From a virus (lineage: Duplodnaviria > Heunggongvirae > Uroviricota > Caudoviricetes), in the IMG/VR virus record IMGVR_UViG_2923307698_000001, positions 1 through 28,744 of that record: 28,744 nucleotides of DNA; one strand, written 5' to 3'. The notes under the pieces were generated by a model that saw only the letters and a list, made by a program, of their open reading frames with translations, searched no databases and was not told the origin of the DNA. The number at the start of each line of letters is the position of its first letter. Positions within the stretch are counted from its first letter, which is position 1. Of the stretch, positions 9,672 to 27,707 are shown one piece after another. The position numbers were made by a program, and so were the translations under genes.

Positions 9672-9812
9672 CGGCTGAATACCTCACTGATCGCTTCTTT
9701 GACTGCGCCAGCTACTGGCGCATTAATCCCTTCGAATTGCTGAATATGCCGATCAGTGAAATTCCCTTGCTGGTCAGTCAGGCAAACAGGATAGAGCAGG
9801 AGAAACGCACAC

Positions 9813-11645
9813 ATGGCTGAATTTGAGCTTAAGGCGTTGATCACCGGTGTCGACAGGCTTTCTCCCGCGCTGTCGAAAATGCAAAAGAAAATCCGGGGAT
9901 TTAAACGCCAGGCGGAAGAAGCGTCACAGGGTGGGCTGGCGCTTGGTGGCGGACTGGCAGCGGGGCTGACGCTTTCCCTGAAATCTTATGCCGATCAGGA
10001 AAACGCCGCTACCGGGCTGAAAGTCGCCATGATGGATGCGAACGGCGAGGTTGGAAAGAGCTTTCAGGACATCAATAAACTGGCTATTGGCCTGGGTAAC
10101 CAGCTACCCGGTACAACGGCTGATTTCCAGAACATGATGCAGATGCTGGTGCGTCAGGGGATCCCGGCAGAAAACATTCTGGGTGGTGTGGGTAAAGCGA
10201 CAGCTTATCTTGCGGTACAACTGAAAAAAACACCGGAAGCGGCTGCCGAGTTTGCCGCAAAGATGCAGGATGCTACCGGAACGGCCTCAGAAGACATGAT
10301 GGGGCTGTTCGACACAATTCAGAAGGCGTTTTATCTGGGCGTTGACGACACCAACATGCTGTCATTCTTCACTAAAACCAGCTCTGTTCTGAAGATGGTG
10401 AACAAGGACGGTCTTCAGGCTGCACAGAGCCTTGCCCCCATCAGCGTCATGATGGATCAGATGGGGATGAACGGGGAGTCGGCAGGTAACGCCCTGCGAA
10501 AAGTTATCCAGTCCGGATTAAGCGTTAAGAAAATCAGGGACGTCAATAAAATCATGGCCCGCCAGAAACTCGGGGTACAGCTCGATTTTACTGACGGCAA
10601 AGGGAGTTTTGGCGGTCTTGATAACATGTTCAGGCAACTGGCAAAGCTGCGAAAACTGACCGACGTTAAACGAACTGGTGTACTTAAGGCAATATTTGGT
10701 GATGATGCCGAAACCCTTCAGGTGGTCAATGCGCTGATCGATAAAGGAAAGGATGGCTACGATCAGATCCAGCAGAAGATGAATAAACAGGCCAGCCTGA
10801 ATAAACATGTTCAGGCACAGCTTGGTACGCTGTCCAACCTGTGGGAGGCAATGACGGGGACCGCAACTAACGGCCTTGCGGCTATTGGCGGCGCATTTTC
10901 TGGTGACGCCAAAAATATCACGCAATGGCTGGGGGAGTTAGGGGAAAAATTCACGAAGTTTGCGGATGAAAATCCCCGGGTTATTCGCGGCGTCGTCGGG
11001 CTTGCTGCCGGTCTTGCGATTCTGAAACTGGGATTGATGGGCGTGGGCAGTGCCATCAGTATCGTCAGCAGGATCATGTCGATGACGCCGATTGGCATGA
11101 TTGCGACGGCGATTGCCTTGGCTGCGGGATTAATTATCACTAACTGGGATGTTGTCGGACCTTATTTTAAGAAACTCTGGGAAACCATTAGTCCTTATTT
11201 TGAGGCTGGCTGGGAACTTCTGAAGAAGGTTTTTGCCTGGTCGCCGCTGGGGATGGTGATCAATAACTGGGGACCGGTTGTTAAGTGGTTTCAGGATATG
11301 TGGGATAAGCTGAAGCCGATTATTGAATGGTTTACCGACAGTTCCGGTGACACGGTCGATGCCATTAACTCGGCGCAGTGGGGCGCGGGTGCTTATGATG
11401 CTTATGGGACGGGAATACCGCCACGGGGATACACTCCTTATCCGGAGGTGGATCCGGCTCAGGCAAACAACGCCTCCGGTGCCACAGGCCCGAATCCTTT
11501 CATGATTAATAAAGCTACCGCGCCAAAAGTTGATGGTGAGATCAAGGTATCATTTATAAATATGCCATCAGGTATGCGGGTTACGGAAACACGCTCCAGT
11601 GGCATTGATATAAATCACGATGTTGGCTATACCCGATTTTGGTAG
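9813..11645 (+). CDS. Tail tape measure protein (Mu-like module)
   Basis: 610 aa, largely alpha-helical composition with a C-terminal hydrophobic stretch (VVGLAAGLAILKLGLMGVGSAISIV). Standard position after the chaperone. Confidence 0.8.
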   Translation: MAEFELKALITGVDRLSPALSKMQKKIRGFKRQAEEASQGGLALGGGLAAGLTLSLKSYADQENAATGLKVAMMDANGEVGKSFQDINKLAIGLGNQLPGTTADFQNMMQMLVRQGIPAENILGGVGKATAYLAVQLKKTPEAAAEFAAKMQDATGTASEDMMGLFDTIQKAFYLGVDDTNMLSFFTKTSSVLKMVNKDGLQAAQSLAPISVMMDQMGMNGESAGNALRKVIQSGLSVKKIRDVNKIMARQKLGVQLDFTDGKGSFGGLDNMFRQLAKLRKLTDVKRTGVLKAIFGDDAETLQVVNALIDKGKDGYDQIQQKMNKQASLNKHVQAQLGTLSNLWEAMTGTATNGLAAIGGAFSGDAKNITQWLGELGEKFTKFADENPRVIRGVVGLAAGLAILKLGLMGVGSAISIVSRIMSMTPIGMIATAIALAAGLIITNWDVVGPYFKKLWETISPYFEAGWELLKKVFAWSPLGMVINNWGPVVKWFQDMWDKLKPIIEWFTDSSGDTVDAINSAQWGAGAYDAYGTGIPPRGYTPYPEVDPAQANNASGATGPNPFMINKATAPKVDGEIKVSFINMPSGMRVTETRSSGIDINHDVGYTRFW

Positions 11646-11736
11646 CCAGGATTCCCCTCACAGGTATTGCTGGTTGTAAGTCATAAATAGAGTGATAGAA
11701 TTAATGCACATTTAGAAAAATGTTAATAGGCGAAAA
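11646..11736 (+). promoter_or_regulatory. Putative sigma70 promoter and operator-like palindrome for the moron
   Basis: -35-like TTGTAA (11674..11679), 16-bp spacer, extended -10 TGaTAGAAT (11693..11701). Perfect palindrome ACATTT-N4-AAATGT at 11707..11722, just before ATG 11737. Confidence 0.3.
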
Positions 11737-12268
11737 ATGAAAGGCTATATCACAGCAAGTGTAATTCTTGGAGCAGCGGCTATTTTTTTCATCTCTCATA
11801 ATCTCTGGCAACATCTCCTTTAAAGATGAACATATTATTCAGTTATCTGGAGGAGCCATAAAACTTGGTGATGTTTATAAAGAAAATAAATTGATAAGTG
11901 CAAAGATTATTTTTCCAGATAATCAGGGTGAACAGATTCTTGTTGTCGACGGCAATCCTGAAAACTTTAAGGAGGATTTTCAGGAGAAATTAAATAAAGT
12001 AATAAAAACTTTAAATGCGTCAAAGAAAAAAGATGAAGAGAAAGTTAGCCTGGATAATTTAAGTGTTATTGAAGAGTCTAAACTAGAGCTCGTTTCTGCG
12101 GTGCGTTACTCTGCTCAGTATGTTCCTATGTTTACTCTGACGCTGGACAAAAAAGAAATTACCATGCCTAAAAATACGGTAATATTTCCATTTGCCAGCG
12201 ATGAAACAGCTAAGTATTTAAATGAACAACAGCAAAAGTATAAAGATTCGTTGTTTCTGACTCGCTAA
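11737..12268 (+). CDS. AT-rich moron: hypothetical protein with hydrophobic N-terminus, frame split at a T7 tract
   Basis: ATG 11737 encodes MKGYITASVILGAAAIFF..., which stops after 28 codons. The +1 frame continues from the T7 run (11783..11789) as ...SSLIISGNISFKDEH... to 12268 (the ORF-track entry 11768..12268 uses a TTG start). AT-rich relative to flanking tail genes. Own terminator follows. Confidence 0.5.
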
Positions 12269-12287
12269 TTAATAAAATTCATTACAA

Positions 12288-12318
12288 GGCCACCTTCTAA
12301 TAGGTGGCTTTTTTATTT
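12288..12318 (+). terminator. Rho-independent terminator after the moron
   Basis: Stem gccacct / aggtggc with loop tctaat, followed by ttttttatttt. Confidence 0.6.
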
Positions 12319-12329
12319 TCGGAGTGTAT

Positions 12330-13658
12330 ATGACGTGGAAAGACAGGCTTCAGGATGCGTCATTTCGAGGTGTGCCGTTTAAGGTTGAAGAAGAAAGTGC
12401 GGGAACCGGTCGCCGTGTGGAAACACATGAATACCCGAACCGCGACAAACCCTATACCGAAGACCTGGGGAAAATCACTTTTCGCCCGTCCATCACGGCT
12501 TATGTGGTGGGAGATGACTGCTTTGACCAGCGCGATCGCCTGATTGACGCGCTGAATAAACCCGGTCCCGGCACGCTTGTCCATCCGACATACGGTGAGC
12601 TGAAAGTCTGTGTTGACGGGGAAGTTCGGGTCAGCACATCGAAAAGTGAAGGGCGTATTGTCCGCTTTGACCTGAAGTTTGTCGAAGCAGGAGAACTCTC
12701 TTACCCCACATCAGGTGCGGCGACGGCGCAGACGCTGATGTCATCCTGTTCTGCATTGGATAACTGCATCAGTGACAGCTTCAGCGGTTTCAGTATCGAT
12801 GGCGTGGCGGATTTTGTGCAGAACGACGTTATCGGTAATGCCAGCACAATGCTTGGGTATGTTTCTGATGCGATGAAAGTGGTGGATTCTGCCGTATCGG
12901 ATGCTGCCAGGCTGTTGCAGGGGGATATCTCGGTACTTCTGCCGCCACCATCGTCAGGCAAAAATTTCGTTGAGCAGGTGCAGAAAATGTGGCGTACCGG
13001 GAAACGCCTTTATGGTAACGCCAGCGACCTGGTCACCATGATCAAAACGCTTTCCGGTGTCAGCCTCGGCAGCGATCTGCAACCGCGCGGCGTCTGGAAA
13101 ACGGACAGTAAAACCACCGCCACGGCGACGCAGCAGCGTAACGTGGTTGCCAGCACCCTTCGTACGACCGCAATCAGCGAAGCGGCGTATGCCGTCACCC
13201 GATTGCCTGCGCCAACAACTTCCGCGGTGATGCAGAATGCCGCAGTGGGGCAGGCAACAACAGCTGCGCAGAGCACCGGCTGGCCTTCCGTCACGCATCC
13301 GGCACTGAACAATGCACCGGCGGTGAAAAACACGGTTGATCTGCCGACGTGGGAAGAACTGACTGACATTCGCGACACACTGAATACGGCAATTGATAAG
13401 GAGTTGTCCCGTACAACCAGTGATGCGCTGTTTCTGGCGCTGCGCCGGGTGAAAGCAGATCTGAATGCGGATATCAACACGCGCCTTGAACAGTCTGCAC
13501 GGATCATTCAGCGCACACCGGATGAGGTTTTACCCGCGCTGGTGCTGGCGGCGACCTGGTTTGATAACGCGGCGCGTGACGCGGACATTATCCGGCGTAA
13601 TGCCATTACGCATCCCGGCTTTGTGCCGGTGATCCCTCTGAAGGTGCCAGTGCAATGA
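12330..13658 (+). CDS. DNA circularisation protein (Mu N/gp43-like)
   Basis: N-terminus MTWKDRLQDASFRGVPFKVEEE fits the family N-terminal motif. ATG 12330 with RBS ggag 5 nt upstream; the ORF-track start at GTG 12324 is less likely. Confidence 0.7.
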   Translation: MTWKDRLQDASFRGVPFKVEEESAGTGRRVETHEYPNRDKPYTEDLGKITFRPSITAYVVGDDCFDQRDRLIDALNKPGPGTLVHPTYGELKVCVDGEVRVSTSKSEGRIVRFDLKFVEAGELSYPTSGAATAQTLMSSCSALDNCISDSFSGFSIDGVADFVQNDVIGNASTMLGYVSDAMKVVDSAVSDAARLLQGDISVLLPPPSSGKNFVEQVQKMWRTGKRLYGNASDLVTMIKTLSGVSLGSDLQPRGVWKTDSKTTATATQQRNVVASTLRTTAISEAAYAVTRLPAPTTSAVMQNAAVGQATTAAQSTGWPSVTHPALNNAPAVKNTVDLPTWEELTDIRDTLNTAIDKELSRTTSDALFLALRRVKADLNADINTRLEQSARIIQRTPDEVLPALVLAATWFDNAARDADIIRRNAITHPGFVPVIPLKVPVQ

Positions 13659-14734
13659 ACGATAACGTCACGCTACGGGTAAATGGCCGGGAGTGGAATG
13701 GCTGGACATCGGTGCGCATCGGTGCCGGTATTGAACGGCTGGCGCGGGATTTCAGTGTGGAGATCACCCGCCAGTGGCCGGGAGATGAGGGTATCACCAC
13801 GCTTCAGCCGCGCATTAAAAACGGTTCAAAAGTGGAAGTGCTGATTGGTGATGAGCTGGTGATCACCGGCTGGGTGGAGGCGACTCCCGTTCGTTACGAT
13901 GCCCGTTCGGTCAGCACCGGTATTGCCGGACGCAGTCTGACCGCTGACCTGATTGACTGTGCAGCCGAACCGACACAGTTTAACGGACGATCGCTGGTAC
14001 AGATTGCGCAGGCGCTTACTGCGCCTTTCGGCATTGAGGTGGTGAACAGCGGTGCGCCGTCGGGTGTTATTCCTGATGTCCAGCCTGATCACGGTGAAAC
14101 GGTGATCGAGGTGATCAACAAAATACTCGGTCAGCAGCAGGCACTGGCTTACGACGATCCGCACGGCAGGCTGGTGATTGGCGGTATTGGCTCAACGCGG
14201 GCACATACCGCGCTGGTACTTGGGGAAAACATCCTTTCCTGCGATACGGAGAAGAGTATCCGGGAGCGGTTTTCAGTTTACCAGGTGGCGGGGCAGCGTG
14301 CCGGAAACGACGATGATTTCGGTGAGGCCACCACCACCGCGCTGCGGGCCCGCACAGAGGACGCATTTATTGCCCGTTACCGTCCGATGTATATCAGGCA
14401 GACAGGGCAGGCCACGGGGGCTGGCTGTATTGCGCGTGCTGACTTTGAAGCCCGGCAACGGGCGGCGCGGACGGATGAAACCACCTATGTGGTGCAGGGC
14501 TGGCGACAGGGTAACGGTACGCTGTGGCAGCCCAACCAGCGGGTGATTGTCTTTGATCCGGTCTGTGGTTTCGACAATACCGAACTGCTTGTTTCGGAAG
14601 TCACGTTTACTCAGGACCAGAACGGCACCCTGACGGAAATCCGTGTCGGCCCGCCTGATGCTTATCTGCCTGAACCCGAAGCCCCCGGCGCGCGGAAAAA
14701 GAAAAAAGCCAGAGTACAGGAGGACCCGTTCTGA
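13655..14734 (+). CDS. Baseplate hub / tail protein (Mu P/gp44-like, late control D family)
   Basis: 359 aa, coupled start, position after N. Confidence 0.7.
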   Translation: MNDNVTLRVNGREWNGWTSVRIGAGIERLARDFSVEITRQWPGDEGITTLQPRIKNGSKVEVLIGDELVITGWVEATPVRYDARSVSTGIAGRSLTADLIDCAAEPTQFNGRSLVQIAQALTAPFGIEVVNSGAPSGVIPDVQPDHGETVIEVINKILGQQQALAYDDPHGRLVIGGIGSTRAHTALVLGENILSCDTEKSIRERFSVYQVAGQRAGNDDDFGEATTTALRARTEDAFIARYRPMYIRQTGQATGAGCIARADFEARQRAARTDETTYVVQGWRQGNGTLWQPNQRVIVFDPVCGFDNTELLVSEVTFTQDQNGTLTEIRVGPPDAYLPEPEAPGARKKKKARVQEDPF

Positions 14735-15282
14735 TGAGGACGATTGAAGCCATGCAGCGACAACTCCTCGGCCTGATTGGGCGGGCCGTGGTGAAAAGCA
14801 TCAGTGCCGCCACGAAATGTCAGACCGTGGATGTGTCCCTGATTGCCGGTGAACCCAAAGCCGGGGTTGAACATCTTGAACCCTACGGTTTTACCGCAAG
14901 GGCAAACAGCGGTGCGGAAGCGGTTGTGTTGTTTCCGGATGGCGACCGTTCTCATGCGGTGGTTGTTACGGTGTCGGACCGTCGCTACCGCCTGAAAGGG
15001 CTGCAGACGGGCGAGGTGGCTGTCTATGACGATCAGGGGCAGTCCGTGACGCTGACCCGGGAGGGGATCGTGGTGGACGGTGCAGGTAAAACGATCACGT
15101 TTCGCAATGCACCTGAAGCACGTTTTGAAATGGACCTGGAAGTGACCGGACAGGTGAAAGACCTGTGCGACTCCGGCGGCACCACCATGTCAGCGATGCG
15201 GCTTGCCTATAACGGGCATCGTCACAGAGAGAACGGTCAGGGCAGTAACACCGACAAACCGGATAAAGCGATGGAGGCATGA
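14734..15282 (+). CDS. Baseplate assembly protein V-like (Mu gp45-like spike)
   Basis: 182 aa with C-terminal DSGGTTMS motif reminiscent of V-family proteins. Coupled start. Confidence 0.6.
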   Translation: MRTIEAMQRQLLGLIGRAVVKSISAATKCQTVDVSLIAGEPKAGVEHLEPYGFTARANSGAEAVVLFPDGDRSHAVVVTVSDRRYRLKGLQTGEVAVYDDQGQSVTLTREGIVVDGAGKTITFRNAPEARFEMDLEVTGQVKDLCDSGGTTMSAMRLAYNGHRHRENGQGSNTDKPDKAMEA

Positions 15283-15707
15283 TGGAACTGTGGCTGACGG
15301 TGAACGGTAAACGCACCTGCGCCAGCGCACCGCTGGATCCGCTGACCCGCTCCGTGGTGATTTCCCTGTTTACCTGGCGGCGGGCGGAGCCTGATGACAA
15401 CGCCGACGTCCCGATGGGATGGTGGGGGGATACCTGGCCTGCGGTACAGAATGACCGTTACGGCTCCCGACTGTGGCTGCTTCAGCGCAGCAAACTGACC
15501 AATCAGCTGGTGCAGACGGTAAGGGGGTATATCCGCGAATGCCTGCAATGGATGATTGATGATTGCGTGGTGTCCCGTATTGATCTGGATATCCGCCGCA
15601 CCGGGATTAATGAACTGGGTAACAGTATCACTCTCTGGCGTCGTGACGGACCGGTAATGATTTCTTTTGATGATCTGTGGAGTGCGATAACGCATGGCGG
15701 ACAGTGA
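15279..15707 (+). CDS. Baseplate wedge protein (Mu gp46 / gp25-like)
   Basis: 142 aa between the V-like and J-like genes. Confidence 0.55.
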   Translation: MMELWLTVNGKRTCASAPLDPLTRSVVISLFTWRRAEPDDNADVPMGWWGDTWPAVQNDRYGSRLWLLQRSKLTNQLVQTVRGYIRECLQWMIDDCVVSRIDLDIRRTGINELGNSITLWRRDGPVMISFDDLWSAITHGGQ

Positions 15708-16752
15708 ATTTCAGCGCCCGACGCTGGCAGAAAATATCAGTATGCTCCGTAACGATTTATTCGCCAGGCTGGACGTCAGCGACACGCTCCGGCGCATGGA
15801 TGAAGACGTGCGGGCAAAGGTGTATGCGGCGGCGCTGCATACGGTTTACGGTTACATCGATTATCTGGCAATGAACATGCTGCCTGACCTGTGCGATGAG
15901 TCCTGGCTGGCGCGACATGCTGCGATGAAACGGTGTCCGCGCAAGGGGGCCACGGCTGCCAGCGGGTATATGCGCTGGGAAGGTGTCAGCGATGGCCTGA
16001 AGGTGACCGCCGGGAGTGTTATTCAGCGCGATGACCTGGTTCAGTACACGGCAACTGCCGATGCAACCAGCTCCGGTGGTGTCCTGCGCGTGCCGATCGC
16101 CTGCTCAAGTTCAGGCGCGGTCGGTAACGCTGACGACGGTACGTCATTAATCCTGGTCACGCCGGTGAATGGTCTGCCGTCTTCCGGTGTGGCTGACACC
16201 CTGACAGGCGGATTTGATACTGAAGATCTGGAAACGTGGCGCGCCCGCATCATTGAGCGGTATTACTGGACGCCGCAGGGCGGGGCTGACGTGGACTATG
16301 TCGTCTGGGCTAAAGAAGTGCCCGGCATTACCCGCGCATGGACATACCGTCACTGGATGGGAACGGGAACTGTCGGTGTGATGATTGCCAGCAGTGACCT
16401 GATTAATCCCATTCCGGAAGAATCAACGGAAACGGCGGCAAGACAACACATTGAGCCACTGGCCCCGGTGGCAGGCTCTGATTTGTATGTATTCAGGCCG
16501 GTGGCGCATAAAGTGGATTTTCATATCCGCGTGACGCCGGACACACCGGAAATACGGGCTGCCATCACCGCCGAGTTGCGTTCGTTCCTGCTGCGTGATG
16601 GTTATCCGCAGGGAGAACTGAAGGTGTCGCGTATCAGTGAGGCGATTTCCGGTGCGAACGGGGAATACAGCCATCAGTTGCTTGCACCGGCAGACAATAT
16701 CTCCATTGCAAAAAATGAACTGGCGGTACTGGGGACGATTTCATGGACGTGA
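15694..16752 (+). CDS. Baseplate J-like protein (Mu gp47-like)
   Basis: 352 aa in conserved position before the gp48-like and tail fibre genes. Confidence 0.7.
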
Positions 16753-17327
16753 CAAACGATGATTACATCCGTCTGTTGTCGGCACTGTTGCCCCCCGGTC
16801 CGGCGTGGTCAGCCAGCGATCCGGCGATTGCCGGTGCGGCACCGTCATTAACCCGCGTTCATCAGCGTGCGGATGCCCTGATGCGGGAGCTGGATCCGCG
16901 CACCACCACCGAACTGATAAATCGCTGGGAGCGTCTGTGCGGCCTGCCGGATGAATGTATTCCCGCAGGGACACAGACCCTTCGCCAGCGTCAGCAACGG
17001 CTGGATGCGAAGGTTAACCTGGCGGGCGGCATCAACGAGGATTTTTATCTTGCACAGCTTGCTGCCCTGGGCAGACCAGATGCCACCATCGCGCGATACG
17101 ACAAAAGCACGTTCACCTGCTCATCGGCCTGTACTGACGCTGTGAACGCGCCTGAATGGCGGTATTACTGGCAGGTCAACATGCCAGCCGCCACCAACAC
17201 CACCTGGATGACATGTGGCGATCCCTGTGATTCCGCACTGCGTATCTGGGGCGACACAGTTGTCGAATGTGTGCTTAACAAACTCTGCCCGTCGCATACC
17301 TACGTAATTTTTAAATATCCGGAGTAA
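16743..17327 (+). CDS. Tail protein (Mu gp48 / YmfQ-like, DUF2313-type)
   Basis: 194 aa, Cys-rich C-terminus, directly upstream of the tail fibre. Confidence 0.6.
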
Positions 17328-17330
17328 TCC

Positions 17331-17993
17331 ATGCATCGTATAGACACGAAAACCGCGCAGAAGGATAAGTTCGGCGCGGGTAAGAACGGTTTTACCCGTG
17401 GTAACCCCCAGACCGGCACGCCTGCCACCGATCTGGATGATGACTACTTTGACATGTTGCAGGAGGAGCTTTGCAGCGTTGTGGAGGCGTCCGGTGCCAG
17501 CCTGGAGAAGGGGCGGCACGACCAGCTACTTACCGCGCTTCGCGCGCTGCTGTTAAGCCGCAAGAATCCGTTTGGCGATATCAAATCGGATGGCACGGTG
17601 AAAACGGCTCTCGAAAACCTTGGTTTGGGAGAAGCGGCAAAACGGGACGTGGGAACAGGGGAAAATCAGATACCGGATATGGTTTCATTTAGTGGTGTGA
17701 GGGATTTTTATGGAAAACAACTTTTGCCAGGAGGGTTGATACTCCAGTGGCTGACGATTCCATCAAGTGCAGCAGTCAAAGCTGTAACACTGGATAATGG
17801 TAATTATCAGCTGTCAGGCTATAAATGGCCCCAGTCATTTGGTGTCCTGTTTGCTGTGTTTGCCACAAAAGTTTCTGGCTCGACTAACGAAGCATACGCA
17901 ATCTCAGTTAATCGTCACTCTACCGATGTAATTGTCACCTGGAATGCCCGTAAGGCTGATGATGTCCATATTTTAGGAATTGGGAAATTATGA
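17331..17993 (+). CDS. Tail fibre protein: constant N-terminal part plus currently expressed variable C-terminus
   Basis: 220 aa. The constant region ends at ...[22 protein letters not shown], which reappears on the opposite strand at 18784..19191 ([22 protein letters not shown]). Confidence 0.65.
17620..17644 (+). repeat. Left inverted repeat / recombination site of the invertible segment
   Basis: ttggtttgggagaagcggcaaaacg is the exact reverse complement of 19127..19151. The hix/gix-like core AAACC-TT-GGTTT is at 17615..17626. Confidence 0.75.
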
Positions 17994-18409
17994 AAATGAA
18001 ATGGTCCCCATCTGTTCAGGGATTTTTCTCTGAAAACAACAGCGATATTCCCGATGATGCTTTCGATATTGAAGATGCTCTTTATTATGAACTTATGAAT
18101 GGTCAGAGTACGGGGAAAATTATTATCAATAGCCCGGATAACTACCCTGTACTTACTGAATATCCAGCGAAGACACATGAACAGGAAATAGCTGAAGCGG
18201 AGGGAATGAAAAATATACTTATTGAACAGGCCAACGATTATATGAACAGTAAACAATGGCCTGGTAAAGCGGCTATTGGCCGGCTGAAAGGTGAGGAACT
18301 GGCACAATATAATTTGTGGCTGGATTACCTGGACGCACTGGAACTGGTCGATACTTCCGGTGCGCCAGATATTGAATGGCCTACACCTCCGGTAACTCAG
18401 GCCAGCTAA
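17990..18409 (+). CDS. Tail fibre assembly protein (expressed orientation)
   Basis: 139 aa, coupled to the tail-fibre stop. Confidence 0.65.
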
Positions 18410-18417
18410 TCTCAGGA

Positions 18418-18441
18418 GCCGTCGAAGTGTCGACGGCTTTT
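18418..18441. terminator. Hairpin terminator between the convergent tail-fibre assembly genes
   Basis: gccgtcga agtg tcgacggc is a perfect 8-bp stem, followed by tttt. Confidence 0.5.
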
Positions 18442-18775
18442 ACTTCTTTTTGTAGTCCATCCAGGCAGATAGTTTTTCTTTATCTGTACTGCTGATATCA
18501 CCAAGCATTAATTCCACCCGCCTGTCAGCTGTGACATTATCGGCATGAGCAAGTAACTGCATTCGCTGATTTTCAGCACGTGCGACATAATCAATCGCCG
18601 GAGATTTCAGTACCGGTAAACCATTTTCATCTGACGTGATTAATTTCCCCCCTTCCTGCTGTCCGGCAATTAATTCATTGTATAAGTCTGTACTTATCTC
18701 AACAATGTCAGCAGGCATGTCGCTGTTTATACCATCAAAGAAAAAACCATTAGTCGATTTTGAGAAATAAATCAT
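18440..18775 (-). CDS. Alternative tail fibre assembly protein (silent orientation)
   Basis: Begins MIYFSKSTNGFFFDGINSD, a typical tail-fibre-assembly N-terminus. Lies inside the invertible segment on the opposite strand. Confidence 0.6.
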   Translation of the reverse strand: MIYFSKSTNGFFFDGINSDMPADIVEISTDLYNELIAGQQEGGKLITSDENGLPVLKSPAIDYVARAENQRMQLLAHADNVTADRRVELMLGDISSTDKEKLSAWMDYKKK

Positions 18776-18783
18776 AGATATAC

Positions 18784-19126
18784 CTATACACCGATTGCTA
18801 CCCAAAAACAGGACCTTTCATATTTGACAATTTCTCCCTGAGATATACCGCCAACAATTATATAGAACTGTGATTTGCTGATATCAGAACAGTTCGCTAT
18901 GCCCATTGCAGATATACCAGCCACCGACGTTGTATGTGGCACAGCCAACAGCGCAAGTGAACGATTTGGGAATGTTACCGGGTAAGTCACCGTATAGTTT
19001 GATGCTCCACTGACAATACCCCACTGAATAATCAGACCTGAAGGGAGTTTTTGAAAACCCGTTGATGAAAGTGAACTGGCAAACGCCGCCATATCCGGAA
19101 TTTGGTTTTGCTCGTTACCCACATTT
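18784..19126 (-). CDS. Alternative tail-fibre C-terminal cassette (promoterless, fused to the constant region after inversion)
   Basis: Translation continues in frame from the right inverted repeat ([20 protein letters not shown]...). It is similar to, but distinct from, the expressed C-terminus. Confidence 0.6.
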
Positions 19127-19151
19127 CGTTTTGCCGCTTCTCCCAAACCAA
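19127..19151 (-). repeat. Right inverted repeat / recombination site of the invertible segment
   Basis: Reverse complement is identical to 17620..17644. Outer half-site AAACC AA CGTTT at 19145..19156. Confidence 0.75.
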
Positions 19152-19218
19152 CGTTTATGAAAATGCAGAGATAACGGCTAACTGGCATCATCTCCGGTTT
19201 TTATTCAGGGGGATGATC

Positions 19219-19785
19219 ATGCTTATTGGCTATGTACGCGTGTCAACAAATGACCAGAACACCGATTTGCAACGTAATGCACTGAACTGCGCGGGATGTG
19301 AGCGGATTTTTGAGGATAAAATCAGTGGCACTAAGTCCGACAGACCGGGGCTGAAAAAGCTGCTCAGGACACTATCGGCAGGAGACACGCTGGTTGTCTG
19401 GAAGCTGGACAGGTTGGGGCGCAGTATGCGGCATCTTGTTACGCTGATAGAGGAGTTGCGCCAGCGTGGTGTGAATTTCCGAAGCCTGACTGACAGTATT
19501 GATACCAGTACCCCAATGGGCCGTTTCTTTTTTCATGTCATGGGTGCCCTGGCTGAAATGGAACGCGAACTGATAGTTGAACGTACCAGGGCAGGGCTGG
19601 CTGCAGCTCGTGCCAAAGGCAGAGTAGGTGGACGCCGTCCTAAGTTGACCACCGAACAGTGGGCACAGATTGGGCGTTTACTCGAGGCCGGAGAATCAAG
19701 ACAGCGTATTGCACTGATTTTTGATGTGGGTGTTTCCACAATTTATAGAAAATTTCCGGCAAATAAGAGTAATGAATCCCCCTGA
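19219..19785 (+). CDS. pin: Serine recombinase DNA invertase (Pin/Gin/Hin family)
   Basis: MLIGYVRVSTNDQNTDLQRNAL...DTLVVWKLDRLGRSM...GRFFFHVMGALAEMERELIVERT...RRPKLT...STIYRKFPA carries the catalytic Ser and C-terminal HTH seen in Hin/Gin/Pin invertases. RBS aggggga precedes ATG 19219. Confidence 0.85.
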   Translation: MLIGYVRVSTNDQNTDLQRNALNCAGCERIFEDKISGTKSDRPGLKKLLRTLSAGDTLVVWKLDRLGRSMRHLVTLIEELRQRGVNFRSLTDSIDTSTPMGRFFFHVMGALAEMERELIVERTRAGLAAARAKGRVGGRRPKLTTEQWAQIGRLLEAGESRQRIALIFDVGVSTIYRKFPANKSNESP

Positions 19786-19927: not shown

Positions 19928-21100
19928 ATGGCTCAGGATTACCACCACGGGGTGCGCGTTGTTGAAGTCAACGAAGGCACCCGATCCATTACCACGGTGA
20001 GCACCGCCATCGTGGGCATGGTCTGCACGGGCGATGATGCCGATGCAAAAATGTTTCCTCTTAACAAACCTGTGCTGATCACTGATGTGCTGACTGCCAG
20101 CGGTAAAGCGGGTGAGTCCGGCACGCTGGCCCGTTCGCTGGATGCCATCGCTGACCAGGCAAAACCCGTGACCGTTGTTGTGCGTGTGCCGCAGGGTGAA
20201 ACGGAAGAAGAAACCACGACCAATATCATCGGCGCAGTGACTGCTGAAGGTAAAAAAACAGGCATGAAAGCTCTGTTATCTGCCCAGTCACAGCTCGGCG
20301 TTAAACCGCGCATTCTCGGCGTGCCAGGTCACGATAACAAAGCCGTTGCGACTGAGTTGCTGAGCGTGGCGCAAAGCCTGCGTGGGTTTGCTTACCTGTC
20401 AGCGTATGGCTGCAAGACGGTACAGGAGGCGATCACTTACCGTGAAAACTTCAGCCAGCGCGAAGGAATGCTGATCTGGCCCGACTTTACTGGCTGGGAC
20501 ACGGTGCTGAATGCCGAAGCAACGGCATATGCCACCGCCCGTGCACTTGGTCTGCGTGCCAAAATTGATGAGCAGACCGGGTGGCACAAAAGCCTGTCCA
20601 ACGTGGGCGTGAACGGTGTCACCGGAATTTCTGCAGATGTGTTCTGGGATCTGCAGGACCCGGCAACCGATGCAGGTCTGCTGAACCAGAACGACGTCAC
20701 CACGCTTGTGCGTAAAGACGGTTTCCGCTTCTGGGGTTCCCGCTGTCTGAGCGATGATCCGCTTTTTGCCTTCGAAAACTACACCCGCACGGCGCAGGTG
20801 CTGACGGACACAATGGCAGAAGCACACATGTGGGCGGTGGATAAACCGCTTAACCCGTCGCTGGCCCGCGACATTATCGAAGGTATCCGCGCCAAAATAC
20901 GCAGCCTGGTCAGTCAGGGCTATCTCATTGGTGGTGATTGCTGGCTGGATGAGTCGGTGAACGACAAAGACACGCTGAAAGCCGGAAAACTCACCATCGA
21001 CTATGACTACACGCCAGTGCCGCCACTTGAAAATCTGATGCTGCGCCAGCGCATCACCGATCAGTACCTGGTGAATTTCGCCAGCCAGGTCAGCGCGTAA
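19928..21100 (+). CDS. FI: P2-type tail sheath protein FI
   Basis: 390 aa. N-terminus [40 protein letters not shown] and C-terminus ...[27 protein letters not shown] match P2 FI as I recall it. Confidence 0.85.
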
Positions 21101-21109
21101 GGGGACAAC

Positions 21110-21625
21110 ATGGCTTTACCACGCAAATTAAAACATCTGAACCTGTTTAACGACGGGAACAACTGGCAGGGGATCGTTGAGTCGCTGACGCTGCCGAAAT
21201 TCACCCGCAAATATGAGAAGTATCGCGGCGGCGGAATGCCGGGTGCAGTGGATGTGGATCTGGGGCTTGATGACAGTGCGCTGGACACAGAATTTTCCAT
21301 TGGTGGTACTGAACTGCTGCTGTTTAAGCAGATGGGCAAAGCCACGGTAGATGGCATTCAGCTGCGCTTTACCGGCTCTATCCAGCGTGACGATACCGGG
21401 GAAGTGCAGGCCGTGGAGCTTGTGGTGCGTGGACGTCACAAAGAAGTGGATTCCGGCGAGTGGAAGACGGGCGAAAGCAACACCACCAAAGTGACCAGTA
21501 CCAACAGCTACGCGAAGCTGACCATCAATGGTGAGGTGCTCTATGAAGTGGACCTTATCAACATGGTGGAAATTGTGGACGGTGTGGACCTGATGGAAGC
21601 GCACCGCAACGCCCTCGGCCTCTGA
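21110..21625 (+). CDS. FII: P2-type tail tube protein FII
   Basis: 171 aa, MALPRKLKHLNLFNDGNNWQG..., directly after FI. Confidence 0.8.
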   Translation: MALPRKLKHLNLFNDGNNWQGIVESLTLPKFTRKYEKYRGGGMPGAVDVDLGLDDSALDTEFSIGGTELLLFKQMGKATVDGIQLRFTGSIQRDDTGEVQAVELVVRGRHKEVDSGEWKTGESNTTKVTSTNSYAKLTINGEVLYEVDLINMVEIVDGVDLMEAHRNALGL

Positions 21626-21636
21626 TGTATCTGAAC

Positions 21637-21654
21637 GGCGCGGGATACCGCGCC
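21637..21654 (+). other. GC stem-loop between FII and E
   Basis: ggcgcgg gata ccgcgcc is a perfect 7-bp stem with no T-tract. Likely an mRNA processing or attenuation element. Confidence 0.3.
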
Positions 21655-21679
21655 AGAACCCAATTTACAGGACAGCAAA

Positions 21680-21982
21680 ATGAGCGATAAGCAGACTGAA
21701 AAGACTATTCAACTGGATACCCCCATCAAGCGCGGTAAAACAGAAATCACCGAAATTGTGCTGCGTAAACCGCAGTCCGGTGCGCTGCGCGGTACACGCC
21801 TGCAGGCCATTATGGATATGGATGTGAACGCGATGATGACCGTGATCCCCCGTATCTCCAGTCCGGCACTGACTGCACAGGAAATTGCAGAGATGGACCC
21901 GGCAGATCTCACTGCCATGTCGGTTGAGGTTGTCACTTTTTTGTTGAAGAAGTCGGTGCTTGCCGGTTTACCGACAGCCTGA
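21680..21982 (+). CDS. E: P2-type tail assembly chaperone E
   Basis: 100 aa between tube and tape measure. Contains the slippery site T TTT TTG. Confidence 0.7.
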   Translation: MSDKQTEKTIQLDTPIKRGKTEITEIVLRKPQSGALRGTRLQAIMDMDVNAMMTVIPRISSPALTAQEIAEMDPADLTAMSVEVVTFLLKKSVLAGLPTA

Positions 21983-22116
21983 CGGTTGACGATCTGGTGG
22001 CTGATATCGCCACCATCTTTCACTGGCCGCCATCCGTTACTGACGTTATGCCGCTGACCGAAGTGCTGGAATGGCGGTATAAAGCGATTCAGAGAAGCGG
22101 GGCCAACGATGAGTGA
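21680..22116 (+). CDS. E+E' frameshift product (-1 shift at 21937..21943)
   Basis: Zero-frame codons ACT TTT TTG give the heptamer T TTT TTG at 21937..21943. The -1 frame reads VEEVGACRFTDSL...RYKAIQRSGANDE to TGA at 22114..22116, overlapping the T start at 22109. Confidence 0.6.
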
Positions 22117-25100
22117 TAACAACCTGCGGCTGCAGGTCATTCTTAATGCGGTTGACAAACTCACCCGCCCATTCCGTGTTGCACAGGCCAGTTCGAAAGA
22201 GCTGGCTGGCGCAATTCAGAATACCCGAAACAGCCTCAAAGAACTGAATAAGCAGGCTGGCAGAATTGATGAATTTCGCAAGACGCGCTCGCAACTAGCC
22301 ATAACAGCCAACAACCTGAACGCAGCCCGCGAAGAGGCGGCAAAACTCGCCACACAATTTGCTGCCACTAACAGGCCAACCGCCGCGCAGGCAAAGTTAT
22401 TCAGTCAGGCCAAAACACGAGTACAGGAACTTCAGCAGACCTATAACGGCTTGTTGGGGGCGGTCCAGAGACAACGTCAGGCACTTAAAGAATCAGGGAT
22501 TGATACCAGACAACTCAGTAGTGCCCAGCGAGAACTTAAGAAAAATGCTGAAGAAACAAGGCAGGCAATGGAGGGCCAGCAAAAAGCACTTAAACGTCTG
22601 GGTGAACAACAGGCACGGATGAACGCTGCCAGAGAACAATACTCAAGACGGCTTGAAGTGCGCGATCGCATCGCAGGAGCCGGAGCCACTACCACGGCTG
22701 CAGGGCTGGCAATGGGTGCGCCAGTGATGGCAGCAGTAAAAAGCTATACCAGCATGGAAGATGCCATGAAAGGTGTGGCAAAGCAGGTCAATGGTCTGCG
22801 TGATGATAATGGCAACCGCACTGCGCGTTTTTACGAAATGCAGGATGCCATCAAGGCTGCCAGCGAACAGTTGCCGATGGAAAACGGTGCTGTGGACTTT
22901 GCCGCACTGGTTGAAGGTGGTGCGCGCATGAACGTCGCAAATCCTGACGACAGCTGGGAAGACCAGAAACGTGACCTGCTGGCCTTCGCCAGCACGGCAG
23001 CAAAGGCGGCAACAGCCTTTGAGCTGCCAGCGGATGAACTGTCAGAAAGTCTGGGGAAAATCGCCCAGCTCTACAAAATCCCTACCCGCAATATTGAACA
23101 GCTCGGTGATGCGCTGAACTATCTGGATGATAACGCCATGTCGAAAGGGTCAGACATCATTGATGTCATGCAACGCCTGGGCGGTGTGGCAGATCGTCTG
23201 GATTATCGTAAAGCGGCGGCGCTGGGTTCCACCTTCCTGACACTGGGCGCTGCGCCGGAGGTTGCTGCCAGTGCAGCAAACGCGATGGTGCGTGAATTGT
23301 CCATTGCCACCATGCAAAGTAAGAGTTTCTTTGAAGGGATGAATCTGCTGAAACTCAATCCTGAAGTGATTGAAAAGCAGATGACGAAGGATGCGATGGG
23401 AACTATCCAGCGTGTGCTGGAGAAGGTGAACGCACTGCCGCAGGACAAGCGTCTGTCTGCCATGACCATGTTGTTTGGTAAAGAGTTTGGTGATGATGCA
23501 GCGAAACTGGCAAACAACCTTCCGGAACTGCAGCGCCAGCTAAAACTGACAGCGGGCAATGATGCGCTCGGTTCCATGCAGAAAGAATCCGACATCAACA
23601 AAGACTCACTTTCCGCTCAGTGGTTGCTGGTCAAAACCGGAGCGCAGAACACCTTCAGCAGCCTGGGCGAAACGCTGCGCCAGCCGCTGATGGATATTCT
23701 GTACACGGTAAAAAGCATCACGGGGGCGTTGCGCCGCTGGGTGGAAGCTAACCCGGAACTGACAGGCACACTGATGAAAGTAGCGGCTGTTGTGGCTGCG
23801 GTTACCGTAGGCCTCGGCACCTTAGCGGTGGCGCTGGCTGCAGTGCTGGGGCCGCTGGCAGTCATCCGTCTGGGATTCTCTGTGCTGGGTATCAAAACGT
23901 TACCTTCCGTTACGGCAGCAGTAACACGAACCAGCAGCGCGTTGTCCTGGTTAGCTGGCGCTCCACTGGCACTGCTGCGACGCGGGCTTGCTTCATCGGG
24001 CAACGCAGCGGGTTTACTTACTGCGCCGTTGTCGTCTTTGCGCCGCACCGCATCACTGACGGGGAATGTCCTGAAAACTGTAGCAGGTGTGCCGGTTGCA
24101 CTGTTGCGGTCTGGATTATCCGGTTTACGTGCGGTTGCTGTGATGTTTATGAATCCACTGGCAGCACTACGCGGTGGACTGGCTGCCGCAGGCGCGGTGC
24201 TGCGTGTGCTGGCATCCGGTCCGCTGGCGATGCTGCGCGTTGCCCTGTATGCCGTATCTGGTCTGTTAGGTGCTCTGCTCAGTCCGATAGGTCTTGTGGT
24301 TACTGCACTGGCGGGCGTGGCGCTGGTTGTCTGGAAATACTGGCAACCCATCACCGCATTTCTCGGTGGCGTGGTGGAAGGATTCAAAGCGGCGGCAGGT
24401 CCCATCAGTGCTGCATTCGAACCGCTTAAGCCCGTGTTCCAGTGGATTGGCGACAAAGTACAGGCGTTGTGGGGCTGGTTTACTGATCTGCTGACGCCTG
24501 TTAAGTCGACCTCTGCCGAACTGCAGAGCGCAGCGGCAATGGGGCGACGATTCGGGGAGGCACTGGCGGAAGGGCTGAATATGGTCATGCATCCGTTGGA
24601 CTCCCTGAAATCCGGCGTTTCCTGGTTGCTGGAGAAACTCGGTATTGTCAGTAAAGAGGCTGCAAAGGCGAAACTGCCGGAAAGCGTGACGCGTCAGCAA
24701 CCTGCGACGGTGAATGCAGACGGTAAAGTGATGATGCCATCGGGTGGTTTTCCGTCATGGGGATATGGCTTTGCGGGGATGTATGACAGCGGCGGCTATA
24801 TCCCGCGCGGGCAGTTCGGCATTGTCGGTGAAAACGGGCCTGAAATTGTCAACGGTCCGGCAAACGTGACCAGTCGGAGAAATACAGCTGCACTGGCTGC
24901 CGTTGTTGCCGGAATGATGGGCGTTGCTGCCGCGCCTGCAGAGCTTCCGCCGTTACATCCTTTGGCACTTCCCGCGAAAGGCGGCGAAGCGATGGTGAGT
25001 CGTGCAGCCACTGTGCCGCCCGCTCAACGGATTGAGGCACCGACGCAGATCATCATCCAGACGCAGCCAGGACAAAGTGCGCAGGATATTGCGCGGGAGG

Positions 25101-25186
25101 TGGCACGCCAGCTTGATGAACGTGAACGCAGGCTGAAGGCAAAAGCCAGGAGTAACTACAGCGATCAGGGGGGATACGACGCATGA
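22109..25186 (+). CDS. T: P2-type tail tape measure protein T
   Basis: 1025 aa. Long helical N-terminal half, Ala/Leu/Gly-rich hydrophobic repeats in the middle. Lies between E/E' and U. Confidence 0.8.
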   Translation: MSDNNLRLQVILNAVDKLTRPFRVAQASSKELAGAIQNTRNSLKELNKQAGRIDEFRKTRSQLAITANNLNAAREEAAKLATQFAATNRPTAAQAKLFSQAKTRVQELQQTYNGLLGAVQRQRQALKESGIDTRQLSSAQRELKKNAEETRQAMEGQQKALKRLGEQQARMNAAREQYSRRLEVRDRIAGAGATTTAAGLAMGAPVMAAVKSYTSMEDAMKGVAKQVNGLRDDNGNRTARFYEMQDAIKAASEQLPMENGAVDFAALVEGGARMNVANPDDSWEDQKRDLLAFASTAAKAATAFELPADELSESLGKIAQLYKIPTRNIEQLGDALNYLDDNAMSKGSDIIDVMQRLGGVADRLDYRKAAALGSTFLTLGAAPEVAASAANAMVRELSIATMQSKSFFEGMNLLKLNPEVIEKQMTKDAMGTIQRVLEKVNALPQDKRLSAMTMLFGKEFGDDAAKLANNLPELQRQLKLTAGNDALGSMQKESDINKDSLSAQWLLVKTGAQNTFSSLGETLRQPLMDILYTVKSITGALRRWVEANPELTGTLMKVAAVVAAVTVGLGTLAVALAAVLGPLAVIRLGFSVLGIKTLPSVTAAVTRTSSALSWLAGAPLALLRRGLASSGNAAGLLTAPLSSLRRTASLTGNVLKTVAGVPVALLRSGLSGLRAVAVMFMNPLAALRGGLAAAGAVLRVLASGPLAMLRVALYAVSGLLGALLSPIGLVVTALAGVALVVWKYWQPITAFLGGVVEGFKAAAGPISAAFEPLKPVFQWIGDKVQALWGWFTDLLTPVKSTSAELQSAAAMGRRFGEALAEGLNMVMHPLDSLKSGVSWLLEKLGIVSKEAAKAKLPESVTRQQPATVNADGKVMMPSGGFPSWGYGFAGMYDSGGYIPRGQFGIVGENGPEIVNGPANVTSRRNTAALAAVVAGMMGVAAAPAELPPLHPLALPAKGGEAMVSRAATVPPAQRIEAPTQIIIQTQPGQSAQDIAREVARQLDERERRLKAKARSNYSDQGGYDA

Positions 25187-25668
25187 TGATGGTGCTGGGA
25201 TTGTACGTGTTTATGCTGCGCACTGTGCCGTATCAGGAACTGCAGTATCAACGCAGCTGGCGACATGCGGCAAACAGCCGGGTCAACCGACGTCCGTCCA
25301 CGCAGTTTCTGGGACCGGACAACGACATGCTGACGCTTTCTGGTGTTCTTATGCCGGAGATAACAGGCGGCAGGCTGTCGTTGCTGGTACTGGAGCAGAT
25401 GGCAGAGCAGGGGAAAGCATGGCCCCTGATTGAAGGCAGCGGCACGATTTACGGCATGTATGTGATTGAGGGACTGAATCAGACTAAAACGGAGTTTTTC
25501 CGCGACGGTATGCCGCGCCGGATTGAGTTCACCCTGTCGCTCAAACGGGTGGATGAATCCCTGTCCGATATGTTCGGTGATCTCAGTGCGCAACTGAATA
25601 ATCTGCAGGACACGGCAACGTCTGCCTTAAGCGATATCAGTAAAACGGTGGGAGGGCTGCTGTCGTGA
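25183..25668 (+). CDS. U: P2-type tail protein U
   Basis: 161 aa, coupled start (ATGATGATG), between T and D. Confidence 0.7.
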   Translation: MMMVLGLYVFMLRTVPYQELQYQRSWRHAANSRVNRRPSTQFLGPDNDMLTLSGVLMPEITGGRLSLLVLEQMAEQGKAWPLIEGSGTIYGMYVIEGLNQTKTEFFRDGMPRRIEFTLSLKRVDESLSDMFGDLSAQLNNLQDTATSALSDISKTVGGLLS

Positions 25669-26765: not shown

Positions 26766-26833
26766 ATGGTTCTCAATATTGATATTTTGTGTATCATTGC
26801 AATGATTCTGATAGCAAAGGTAGGGATCTGGAT

Positions 26834-27052: not shown

Positions 27053-27056
27053 GAAA

Positions 27057-27680: not shown

Positions 27681-27707
27681 TATTTGGTGGAGCTGGCGGG
27701 AGTTGAA
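27655..27707. repeat. Proximal att-site direct repeat (ssrA 3' end plus terminator), partner of 1..52
   Basis: Identical to window 1..32 over 27655..27686, with a degenerate match beyond. Confidence 0.7.

Follow-up and report, generated by a model that had tools for sequence, protein, structure and literature searches.

The invertible element in the window, by which we mean the whole 28,744-nucleotide stretch of viral DNA that was analysed, is best explained as a Pin-type tail-fibre inversion switch of the Hin/Gin/Cin/Pin family, dependent on Fis and located at the joint of an e14-like/P2-type prophage chimera. We put the probability of this reading at roughly 85%. The switch itself is a known and well-understood system, found here where two decayed E. 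coli prophages have been fused. Judged by sequence, its parts appear intact, with the exception of a possible frameshift in the second chaperone gene. The main use of the analysis lies in correct annotation of the two fibre tips, the two chaperones, pin, the crossover sites and the enhancer.

Crossover sites and fibre cassettes

The original prediction described 25-bp repeats at 17620-17644 (TTGGTTTGGGAGAAGCGGCAAAACG) and 19127-19151 as exact reverse complements, and our sequence check confirmed both their coordinates and their exactness. The chance expectation for a perfect 25-bp inverted repeat within 28.7 kb is approximately 4e-7. These repeats bound an invertible segment of 1,532 bp (17620..19151) with a GC content of 43%, compared with 54-57% in the flanks. 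A weaker complementarity of 82% over 68 nt extends beyond the repeats (17615-17682 with 19089-19156), because similar codons open both fibre tips. The left 26-bp crossover site, of pix/gix type, occupies 17608..17633 on the plus strand and reads CTCTCGAAAACC-TT-GGTTTGGGAGAA, with its central TT at 17620-17621. The right 26-bp site lies at 19138..19163 on the minus strand and, as the reverse complement, reads TTTTCATAAACG-TT-GGTTTGGGAGAA; its central dinucleotide appears as AA at 19150-19151 on the plus strand. Both sites consist of two imperfect 12-bp half-sites around the common 2-bp core TT/AA and are in inverted orientation, and identity between left and right sets in exactly at this core (17620-21, 19150-51). 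Across the window, AAACCNNGGTTTGGGAGAA at up to 3 mismatches was matched by these two sites only, plus the left site's own palindromic overlap, with 0.03 matches expected by chance.

Each site is identical at 26 of 26 positions to its left or right counterpart in the P segment of K-12 e14. The outer half of the left site is of e14 type, LF82 differing at 17614 and 17616, and the right-site sequence is also present in LF82/Cartapus. Both sites align with the similar Mu gix and P7 cix sites, to all of which AAACC-NN-GGTTT is common, and the central dinucleotide corresponds by homology to the annotated crossover of P7 cixL, which is placed at the same central TT. This match bears out the earlier assignment of a hix/gix-type invertible tail-fibre switch, as well as the position given for its crossover dinucleotide. 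The AAACC-NN-GGTTT core that had been ascribed to each site needs one small correction: AAACG stands in the outer half of the right one, as it does in K-12 e14.

The genes follow the layout of a host-range switch, with a constant 5′ part outside the segment and two opposed 3′ tips inside it, each accompanied by a chaperone and both in frame. The constant N-terminal part of the tail-fibre gene (17331..17619, plus strand, ~96 codons) is of the e14/StfP type; it is 100% identical to that of the e14-like prophages JNE132847 and L010. The constant part of the LF82/Cartapus fibre, 349 codons long, bears no relation to it. The tip now in frame (Sv; 17620..17993, plus strand), which has a weak Gp53-like_C match, completes a fibre ORF of 220 aa (17331-17993), and an identical 220-aa protein is also encoded by ordinary e14-like prophages. 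It is followed by its assembly chaperone of 139 aa (17990..18409, plus strand; Pfam Caudo_TAP, E 3e-22). A terminator-like element at 18414..18441, composed of a GC-rich 12-pair hairpin and then a T-run, separates the convergent chaperone genes. On the minus strand are the chaperone of the alternative tip (18440..18775, ~110 aa; Caudo_TAP, E 5.5e-13) and the alternative tip itself (Sv′; 18784..19151; Gp53-like_C, E 2e-15), whose ORF extends past the segment to an ATG at 19191.

Inversion of the segment in silico joins Sv′ to the constant part in frame and yields a fibre of 218 aa. The alternative chaperone is frameshifted by a T6-to-T5 deletion at 18441-18446 that is private to the window; in the sibling assembly L005 the T6 run at this gene is intact. 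The Caudo_TAP profile accordingly ends at position 111 of 131 in the window's copy, and the LF82 homologue is 131 aa long. Of the earlier claim that inversion would swap the fibre C-terminus together with its assembly protein, the in-frame exchange therefore stands in silico, whereas the alternative chaperone is truncated here.

The Pin invertase and probable inversion of the segment

The pin gene (19219..19785, plus strand) encodes a 188-aa small serine DNA invertase with matches to Pfam Resolvase (E 2e-53) and HTH_7 (E 1e-15). Its match to the Mu Gin structures PDB 3UJ3/4M6F covers residues 1-184 with ~79% identity and E 8e-93, and the active-site residues Ser9, Arg7 and D64-R-L-G-R68 are all present. 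A mutated catalytic serine had been named as evidence against an active switch; Ser9 is in place and carries no mutation. Residues Q150-I-G-R153-L154 align with the Q-I-S-R-L motif of Hin (PDB 1HCR). In invertases, Fis is contacted by helix 1 of the DNA-binding domain, through Gln151, Arg154 and Leu155 in the case of Hin (PMC3798978).

A search for a Fis-type enhancer in the 5′ end of pin, which the original prediction had proposed as a check, revealed an enhancer-like element of 64 bp at 19240..19303, a candidate recombinational enhancer. Fis-type 15-mers (G-N13-C) are located at both of its ends (19240-19254 and 19289-19303), with GATTTG...GTAATG between them. The distal 15-mer, kept in gin, pinE and cin, agrees with the Fis consensus at 7 of 7 positions; for the proximal 15-mer the agreement is 3 of 7. 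By the assignment made here, 49 nt separate the starts of the two Fis-like cores; the Fis core spacing in Hin is 48 bp, and our core assignment may be off by one relative to Hin. The candidate is colinear with nt 19-86 of P7 cin, where an enhancer is annotated; its distance to the centre of the right site is 96.5 bp, and its size and layout equal those described for the Hin enhancer (PMC3798978). From these features we infer that 19240-19303 would bind Fis and function as an enhancer.

Following the family mechanism, the two inverted 26-bp sites would be bound by Pin dimers, and Fis on the ~64-bp enhancer in the 5′ end of pin would bring about an invertasome on supercoiled DNA. Ser9 would cut all four strands at the central TT/AA, and a single 180-degree subunit rotation would invert the 1,532-bp segment. 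According to the in silico inversion, the opposed cassette would then replace the last ~124 fibre codons and the chaperone gene after them.

Both orientations of the segment are found among related genomes. The window's orientation also occurs in LF82, N17, N64 and others, and the opposite one in G3, FDAARGOS_1372, H15, LD91-1, MS20657 and N24. Between N17 and N24 the flanks are colinear and a 1,536-bp segment is inverted from the central TT, at 99.94% identity; other genomes likewise contain near-identical copies in both orientations (98.7-99.9% identity). Switches of this type therefore flip, and Pin-type switches near-identical to the window's do so in nature. A finding of one orientation only, which had been set out in advance as refuting evidence, did not emerge from these relatives. 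By extension from them, the segment probably flips at the window's own locus as well.

Could the switch nonetheless be a frozen relic, with sites and pin kept and a segment that no longer inverts meaningfully here, for instance because pin is unexpressed? The window and L005, the two available sequences of the chimera, share one and the same orientation, a promoter scan found no consensus sigma-70 promoter between the right site and pin, and the prophage around the switch is defective, each of which would suit such a relic. Nevertheless, we consider it unlikely. The pin stretch has zero differences from LF82 and is thus the same allele as in the active phage Cartapus/LF82, copies of this allele are seen in both orientations, and both crossover sites and the enhancer-like element are intact. 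Moreover, Pin paralogues of other cryptic prophages in K-12 invert the e14 segment in trans (PMC12529663), so that a silent pin need not lock the segment.

A joint between two prophages at ssrA

To the left of the switch, the window carries a complete e14/Mu-type contractile-tail module (7550..17327, plus strand) with sheath, tube, tape measure and a Gp44-48-type baseplate including ymfQ, in which all ORF lengths are equal to those of JNE132847. The left boundary of this e14-like remnant is an IS3-family element (1227..2476, minus strand), to the right of which the portal gene is frameshifted and has lost its 5′ end. To the right of the switch, the right arm of a P2-type (Cartapus-like) prophage stands as an orphan (19928..27053, plus strand; FI, FII, E, T, U, D and ogr), without accompanying P2 baseplate or fibre genes. 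This arm is followed by ssrA (tmRNA; 27685..28047, minus strand), the attachment locus of the P2-type prophage, and, beyond it, by smpB (28262-28744).

This arrangement overturns two earlier claims. The rest of the tail module had been taken to look intact, but the switch proves to be the joint of an e14-like late-gene remnant and an orphan P2-type FI-to-ogr arm. Inversion had also been expected to change host range. Terminase, lysis, regulatory, replication and integrase genes are all absent from the remnant in the window; with terminase and lysis genes missing, the portal broken by IS3 and a frameshift, and one chaperone truncated, there is no infectious phage and therefore no host range to change. 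The window's switch accordingly does not belong to a phage able to make virions. Inversion can still exchange coding sequences, though no infectious phage remains.

The left flank shares 99.6-100% identity with e14-like prophages and the right flank 99.5-99.9% with P2-type prophages at ssrA, and the parental markers change between 17617 and 19111. The cassette in this exchange interval is 100% identical in the e14-like and P2-type phages. The window begins with the pinH′-ypjA′-IS3 side of the ssrA island. JNE132847 possesses the same IS3 boundary and the same e14-like prophage, then a second prophage before ssrA. Together, JNE132847 and the left flank suggest that prophages once stood in tandem at ssrA and that an internal deletion then took place. 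An analogous tandem exists in 07-4299, where an older island is combined with a P2-type prophage, as it does in JNE132847, whose second prophage is lambdoid; these two cases suggest a tandem ancestor for the window. A search for an intact tandem of e14-like and Cartapus-like prophages found none in a complete genome. The chimera was sought in 5,426 complete E. coli genomes with a query that omitted the invertible segment, so that orientation was irrelevant; none contained it, and the best coverage (66%) came from ordinary e14-like loci. It was located only through exact-protein look-up in draft assemblies.

The absence of the joint from all 5,426 complete genomes, and the identity of the cassette in both phage types, might indicate an assembly artefact in which two copies of the common 1.5-kb cassette were collapsed at the e14/P2 joint. 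This is very improbable: the independent NCBI draft GCA_038435545.1 contains the same joint, at 99.995% identity, within one contig of 85 kb, and a short-read contig would ordinarily end there if the genome had two copies of the cassette. The contig is reported for 2 samples, and one further place is similar.

In the mechanism that we favour, the e14-like remnant between ypjA′-IS3 and ssrA would have been fused to the right arm of a Cartapus-like prophage at ssrA, most likely by RecA-dependent recombination between the identical, directly oriented fibre cassettes of the two phages. The pinE end of e14 itself would have been lost in the fusion, as would the left two-thirds of the P2-type prophage. 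A perfect direct repeat of 1.5 kb is a good substrate for RecA, and the cassette pair suits this route better than one in which Pin or a paralogue made the chimera by recombining the directly oriented left sites of the tandem prophages and deleting what lay between them. We regard the latter as improbable, even though the left core falls within the exchange interval (17617-19111) and comparison with the DAM and JNE parents gives an e14-type outer half-site with P2-type sequence everywhere inward of it. For an L010-type parent a right-core crossover is excluded because 19112, 19120 and 19126 are P2-type. However, with L010, the closest e14-like parent, the whole 1.5-kb segment is identical and the core is not singled out. 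In addition, the Fis/enhancer invertasome makes intramolecular inversion exclusive for wild-type invertases (PMC3798978). With JNE, DAM and LF82 as parents, the breakpoint had seemed to fall within 17617-17634, on the left site's central TT; this placement was rejected because, against L010, the whole segment up to 19111 is uninformative. With 100% identity between the parents throughout the exchange interval, deletion by homologous recombination and site-specific deletion are indistinguishable by sequence. Were the invertase responsible, its sites would serve as portable points of recombination between elements, by which fibre cassettes pass from one phage family to an unrelated one and prophages are driven into chimerism and decay; fusion at the sites would also account for 100% cassette identity up to the site boundaries.

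An exchange at the invertase sites between a distant e14-like prophage (e.g. at icd) and the P2-type prophage at ssrA would make the joint one end of a megabase inversion. The JNE and LF82 parents do overlap exactly on the 26-bp left site, and in K-12 e14 is at icd, far from ssrA. We rejected this barely credible scenario on the basis of local context. The ssrA island normally has pinH′-ypjA′-IS3, the window's left end, as its far side, the e14-like prophage of JNE132847 abuts the same IS3 in the same interval and orientation, and in L010 the e14-like prophage directly adjoins smpB/ssrA; all this makes the window colinear with an ordinary chromosome.

RecA-dependent fusion of tandem prophages, as preferred here, would have made use of a fibre cassette that is bounded by invertase sites and 100% identical across unrelated families, those with e14/Mu-type and those with P2-type tails. 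A common cassette of this kind can act as a crossover region at which tandem prophages are fused and most of one is deleted. An apparently working invertase switch may also outlive its phage. Inversion-made fibre fragments of the cryptic prophage e14 have been claimed to block phage T2 adsorption (PMC12529663), and by this analogy host-beneficial phase variation is a reasonable role to propose for a switch that a dead prophage has kept.

Relation to known inversion systems

The closest experimental precedent is e14 of K-12, whose P segment was shown to invert at the repeat TTGGTTTGGGAGAAGG under PinE, PinQ and PinR (PMC12529663); the window's inverted repeat matches this published sequence at 15 of 16 positions. 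The two loci have the same fibre constant part and a common layout of ymfQ, StfP-type fibre, chaperone, opposed chaperone, opposed tip and pin. They differ in their cassettes and in segment length, which is 1,532 bp in the window and 1,797 bp in e14. The window's 188-aa invertase is a P2-type allele with ~82% DNA identity to a pinE, whereas e14 encodes the 184-aa PinE. Downstream of pin, the window continues into P2 tail genes and e14 into mcrA/icd.

Escherichia phage Cartapus (Peduoviridae, Elveevirus), which resides at ssrA in E. coli LF82 as a P2-like prophage, shares the window's right-hand chromosomal junction. DNA identity between the two is 99.8-99.9% over a stretch that starts at the left site, takes in the segment, pin and the sheath gene, and continues past them. 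The Cartapus segment is attached to a 349-codon P2 H-type constant part to afford a 473-aa fibre, whereas the window's constant part and upstream region are e14-type. Cartapus is an active, complete and inducible prophage of LF82, as described in a report that makes no mention of an invertase or any inversion (PMC9928086).

The Mu G/Gin and P1/P7 C/Cin systems share with the window the order of parts Sc, Sv, U, opposed U′, opposed Sv′ and invertase. An enhancer in the 5′ end of the invertase gene is annotated in P7 cin and is a candidate in the window. The window's segment is shorter than the ~3-kb G segment of Mu and the ~4-kb C segment of P1/P7, its fibre is much shorter, and its half-site flanks differ from those of Mu and P1/P7. 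The invertase gene of P1/P7, cin, flanks the segment on the side opposite to that of the window's pin and has cixL at its 3′ end. Hin of Salmonella enterica and the window's Pin belong to the same recombinase subfamily, with the Fis-contact motif kept, and the Hin enhancer and the window's candidate have the same size and two-Fis-site layout at roughly 100 bp from a crossover site. The outcome of recombination differs, as Hin inverts a promoter for flagellin genes, whereas the window's switch exchanges fibre-gene coding cassettes.

Crossover sites and the invertible segment

As the original prediction had it, 17620-17644 (TTGGTTTGGGAGAAGCGGCAAAACG) is the exact reverse complement of 19127-19151; about 4e-7 perfect 25-bp inverted repeats would be expected by chance in DNA of the window's size. 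The repeat forms the inner part of two 26-bp crossover sites, a left site at 17608-17633 (CTCTCGAAAACC-TT-GGTTTGGGAGAA) and a right site at 19138-19163 (as reverse complement, TTTTCATAAACG-TT-GGTTTGGGAGAA). Arm-to-arm identity starts exactly at the central dinucleotide (17620-21 and 19150-51), as expected where strand exchange takes place there. A pattern search of the whole window allowing up to three mismatches returned these two sites only, versus 0.03 expected. The proposed AAACC-type half-sites hold in general, except in the outer half of the right site, where the sequence is AAACG.

The fibre gene (17331-17993, +) encodes 220 aa, with its first ~96 codons outside the segment, and is followed by a Caudo_TAP chaperone gene (17990-18409, +), a strong terminator-like hairpin (18414-18441), a second Caudo_TAP chaperone gene (18440-18775, -) and a Gp53-like fibre tip (18784-19151, -). 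In silico inversion of 17622-19149 joins the constant part to the second tip in frame, giving a 218-aa fibre. The silent-tip ORF (18784-19191, -) has an ATG start 40 nt beyond the right site, and after inversion this ATG at 19191 would read into another chimeric ORF. The arrangement resembles StfE/StfE2, which Kirigo et al. 2025 (PMC12529663) associate with a block to T2 adsorption. A T6-to-T5 change at 18441-18446, private to the window, shortens the second chaperone from 131 to ~110 aa; it may be a homopolymer sequencing error, since the otherwise identical sibling draft assembly L005 has T6. A substitution at 18523 (Arg in the window, Trp in LF82) sets the window apart from LF82, DAM and the covering e14-like loci.

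Orientation, invertase and candidate enhancer

Both orientations of the segment, rather than one only, were observed among near-identical relatives in other genomes. Among near-identical P2-type copies in complete E. coli genomes, the window's orientation occurs in LF82, N17, N64, MS 57-2, GPEC709 and others, and the reverse orientation, running unbroken into pin at 98.7-99.9% identity, in G3, FDAARGOS_1372, H15, LD91-1, MS20657 and N24. N17 and N24 carry the prophage at one chromosomal position with colinear flanks, and differ by inversion of a 1,536-bp segment (99.94% identity) from the central TT. Orientation also differs between the e14-type pair DAM and ANT. Inversion thus does occur in nature in switches of precisely this type, and this one is real and was correctly recognised; the chimera itself is in one orientation in both its sequences, the window and L005.

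The adjoining invertase gene pin (19219-19785, +) encodes a 188-aa protein with Resolvase and HTH_7 domains and ~79% identity to Mu Gin (PDB 3UJ3/4M6F) over its whole length (E ~1e-92). Its catalytic serine, Ser9, is in place, as are Arg7 and the D-R-L-G-R motif. Pin Q150-x-x-R153-L154 aligns with Hin Gln151/Arg154/Leu155; according to McLean et al. 2013 (PMC3798978), these residues contact Fis and their conservation is unique to DNA invertases. A 12-bp perfect inverted repeat (19203-19214, ATTCAGGGGGAT; 19776-19787, ATCCCCCTGAAT) flanks the pin ORF from ribosome-binding region to stop codon, a length that chance alone would roughly account for in a 5-kb region.

The 5' end of pin, where an enhancer-type element had been anticipated, holds a candidate at 19240-19303. 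This end aligns without gaps with those of Mu gin, K-12 pinE and P7 cin, the last with an enhancer annotated at nt 19-86 of cin in its GenBank record. Of two G-N13-C 15-mers in pin, that at nt 71-85 (19289-19303, GCGCGGGATGTGAGC) matches the degenerate Fis consensus at 7/7 positions in all four genes, and that at nt 22-36 (19240-19254, GTGTCAACAAATGAC) at just 3/7. Between them lie ATTTG and TAATG tracts, where the Hin enhancer has ATTTA and TAATG. The candidate spans 64 bp, and 96.5 bp separate the midpoint of its proximal Fis-like site from that of the right crossover site. It thus appears, by sequence, to agree in size, Fis-site layout and distance from the crossover site with the Hin enhancer, which is ~65 bp long with a Fis site at either end, ~100 bp from hix (PMC3798978). 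Overall, the window's switch is almost certainly mechanistically competent.

A joint between two prophage families

Tail genes in the window form two modules. Left of the switch lies an e14/Mu-type module (sheath at 7550-9046, tube, tape measure, DNA-circulation protein, Gp44-48-type baseplate and ymfQ), 99.6% identical to the e14-like prophage of JNE132847. Right of pin lies a P2-type right arm (FI, FII, E, T, U, D and ogr), 99.5-99.9% identical to prophages of 07-4299 and LF82 and followed by ssrA and smpB. This joint was absent from all 5,426 complete E. coli genomes searched. It is present on one 85-kb contig (99.995% identity) of L005 (GCA_038435545.1), an independent draft, which argues against an assembly artefact and makes that explanation highly improbable.

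L010, an e14-like locus, encodes an identical 220-aa fibre. The window matches L010 perfectly over 17259-19111, and LF82 from 17617 onward, save the same two window-private changes. Because it matches both parents there, sequence comparison places the parental exchange somewhere within 17617-19111. An identity switch at the left core, drawn from JNE132847, DAM and LF82 as parents, was given up when the closer parent L010 widened the interval; the P2-type bases at 19112, 19120 and 19126 exclude a crossover at the right core if the parent was L010-type. The cassette 17617-19111 is 100% identical between L010 and the P2-like Cartapus/LF82 prophage, is joined to unrelated fibre constant parts (220-aa versus 473-aa fibres) and has 43% GC versus 54-57% in its flanks. 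It acts like a portable module with an invertase site at either end.

The first hypothesis for the chimera, in which e14 at icd and an ssrA prophage had recombined to invert a megabase of chromosome, was rejected on three findings. In its leftmost 2.5 kb, the window has the pinH relic, ypjA fragment and IS3 that normally bound the ssrA island on its far side; JNE132847 has, in the same interval and orientation, ypjC, pinH', ypjA', IS3, an e14-like prophage, a lambdoid prophage, ssrA and smpB; and the e14-like prophage of L010 abuts smpB directly, with the P2-type prophage of 07-4299 lying between an older integrase-bearing island and ssrA. In the simplest history, an e14-like and then a Cartapus-like prophage would have stood in tandem at ssrA, both late-gene sets towards ssrA; deletion between their identical, directly oriented cassettes would have followed, with a separate IS3-adjacent deletion reaching into the portal gene. 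RecA works well on a perfect direct repeat of 1.5 kb, which favours homologous recombination as the deletion route. So does the finding that wild-type invertasomes yield inversion exclusively (PMC3798978), which makes invertase-catalysed deletion at the left cores an unlikely origin.

The IS3-family element (1227-~2476, -) adjoins a portal gene whose 5' end is missing and which a frameshift divides into two ORFs, 2425-2955 and 2907-3518. The boundary of this IS3 with the e14-like prophage lies ~10 kb further upstream in JNE132847, suggesting that the window's lineage underwent a deletion next to the IS3. The pinH-like relic of a third invertase gene (221-379, +; 53 aa, 70% identity to Pin residues 42-94, E 1e-17) lacks the catalytic serine region and the DNA-binding domain. 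It likewise adjoins a ypjA fragment in B4103-1 and JNE132847, suggesting that an earlier invertase-bearing prophage once sat in this hot-spot. e14-like prophages with the identical fibre occupy different chromosomal sites, beside an integrase and dusA/pspG in L006 (GCA_049813385.1) and at the ssrA island in others. Prophages at ssrA stack in tandem in JNE132847 (L015/L022), e14-like then lambdoid with nleG7.

Consequences and known relatives

The tail module had been described as looking intact, which is true of the e14-type tail genes, every ORF having the same length as in JNE132847, and not of the rest of the phage: within the window the remnant carries no terminase, lysis, antiterminator, replication or integrase genes, and truncation and a frameshift have disrupted its portal gene. 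The P2-type FI, FII, E, T, U, D and ogr genes (19928-27053) are full-length orphans; the P2 baseplate, fibre, head and lysis genes that they would work with are absent. With virion-essential genes missing and the portal broken, the suggestion that inversion changes host range therefore fails at this locus; it is valid for the family and for Cartapus, the intact parent. Host use of the e14 switch via StfE2 has been claimed (PMC12529663).

What is new is where the switch lies, at a joint formed by recombination of two prophage families. This is a tidy, if not surprising, illustration of how shared cassettes mediate mosaicism and decay in prophages. The switch itself is an already known system. 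Its sites equal those flanking the e14 P segment of E. coli K-12 at 26/26 positions each, and inversion of that segment at the repeat TTGGTTTGGGAGAAGG by PinE, PinQ and PinR has been shown experimentally (Kirigo et al. 2025, PMC12529663). Starting at the left site and going right, the window shares 99.8-99.9% identity with the LF82 P2-like prophage, deposited as phage Cartapus and spontaneously induced in LF82 (PMC9928086). The window's switch thus combines the e14 P-segment sites with the Cartapus invertase allele.
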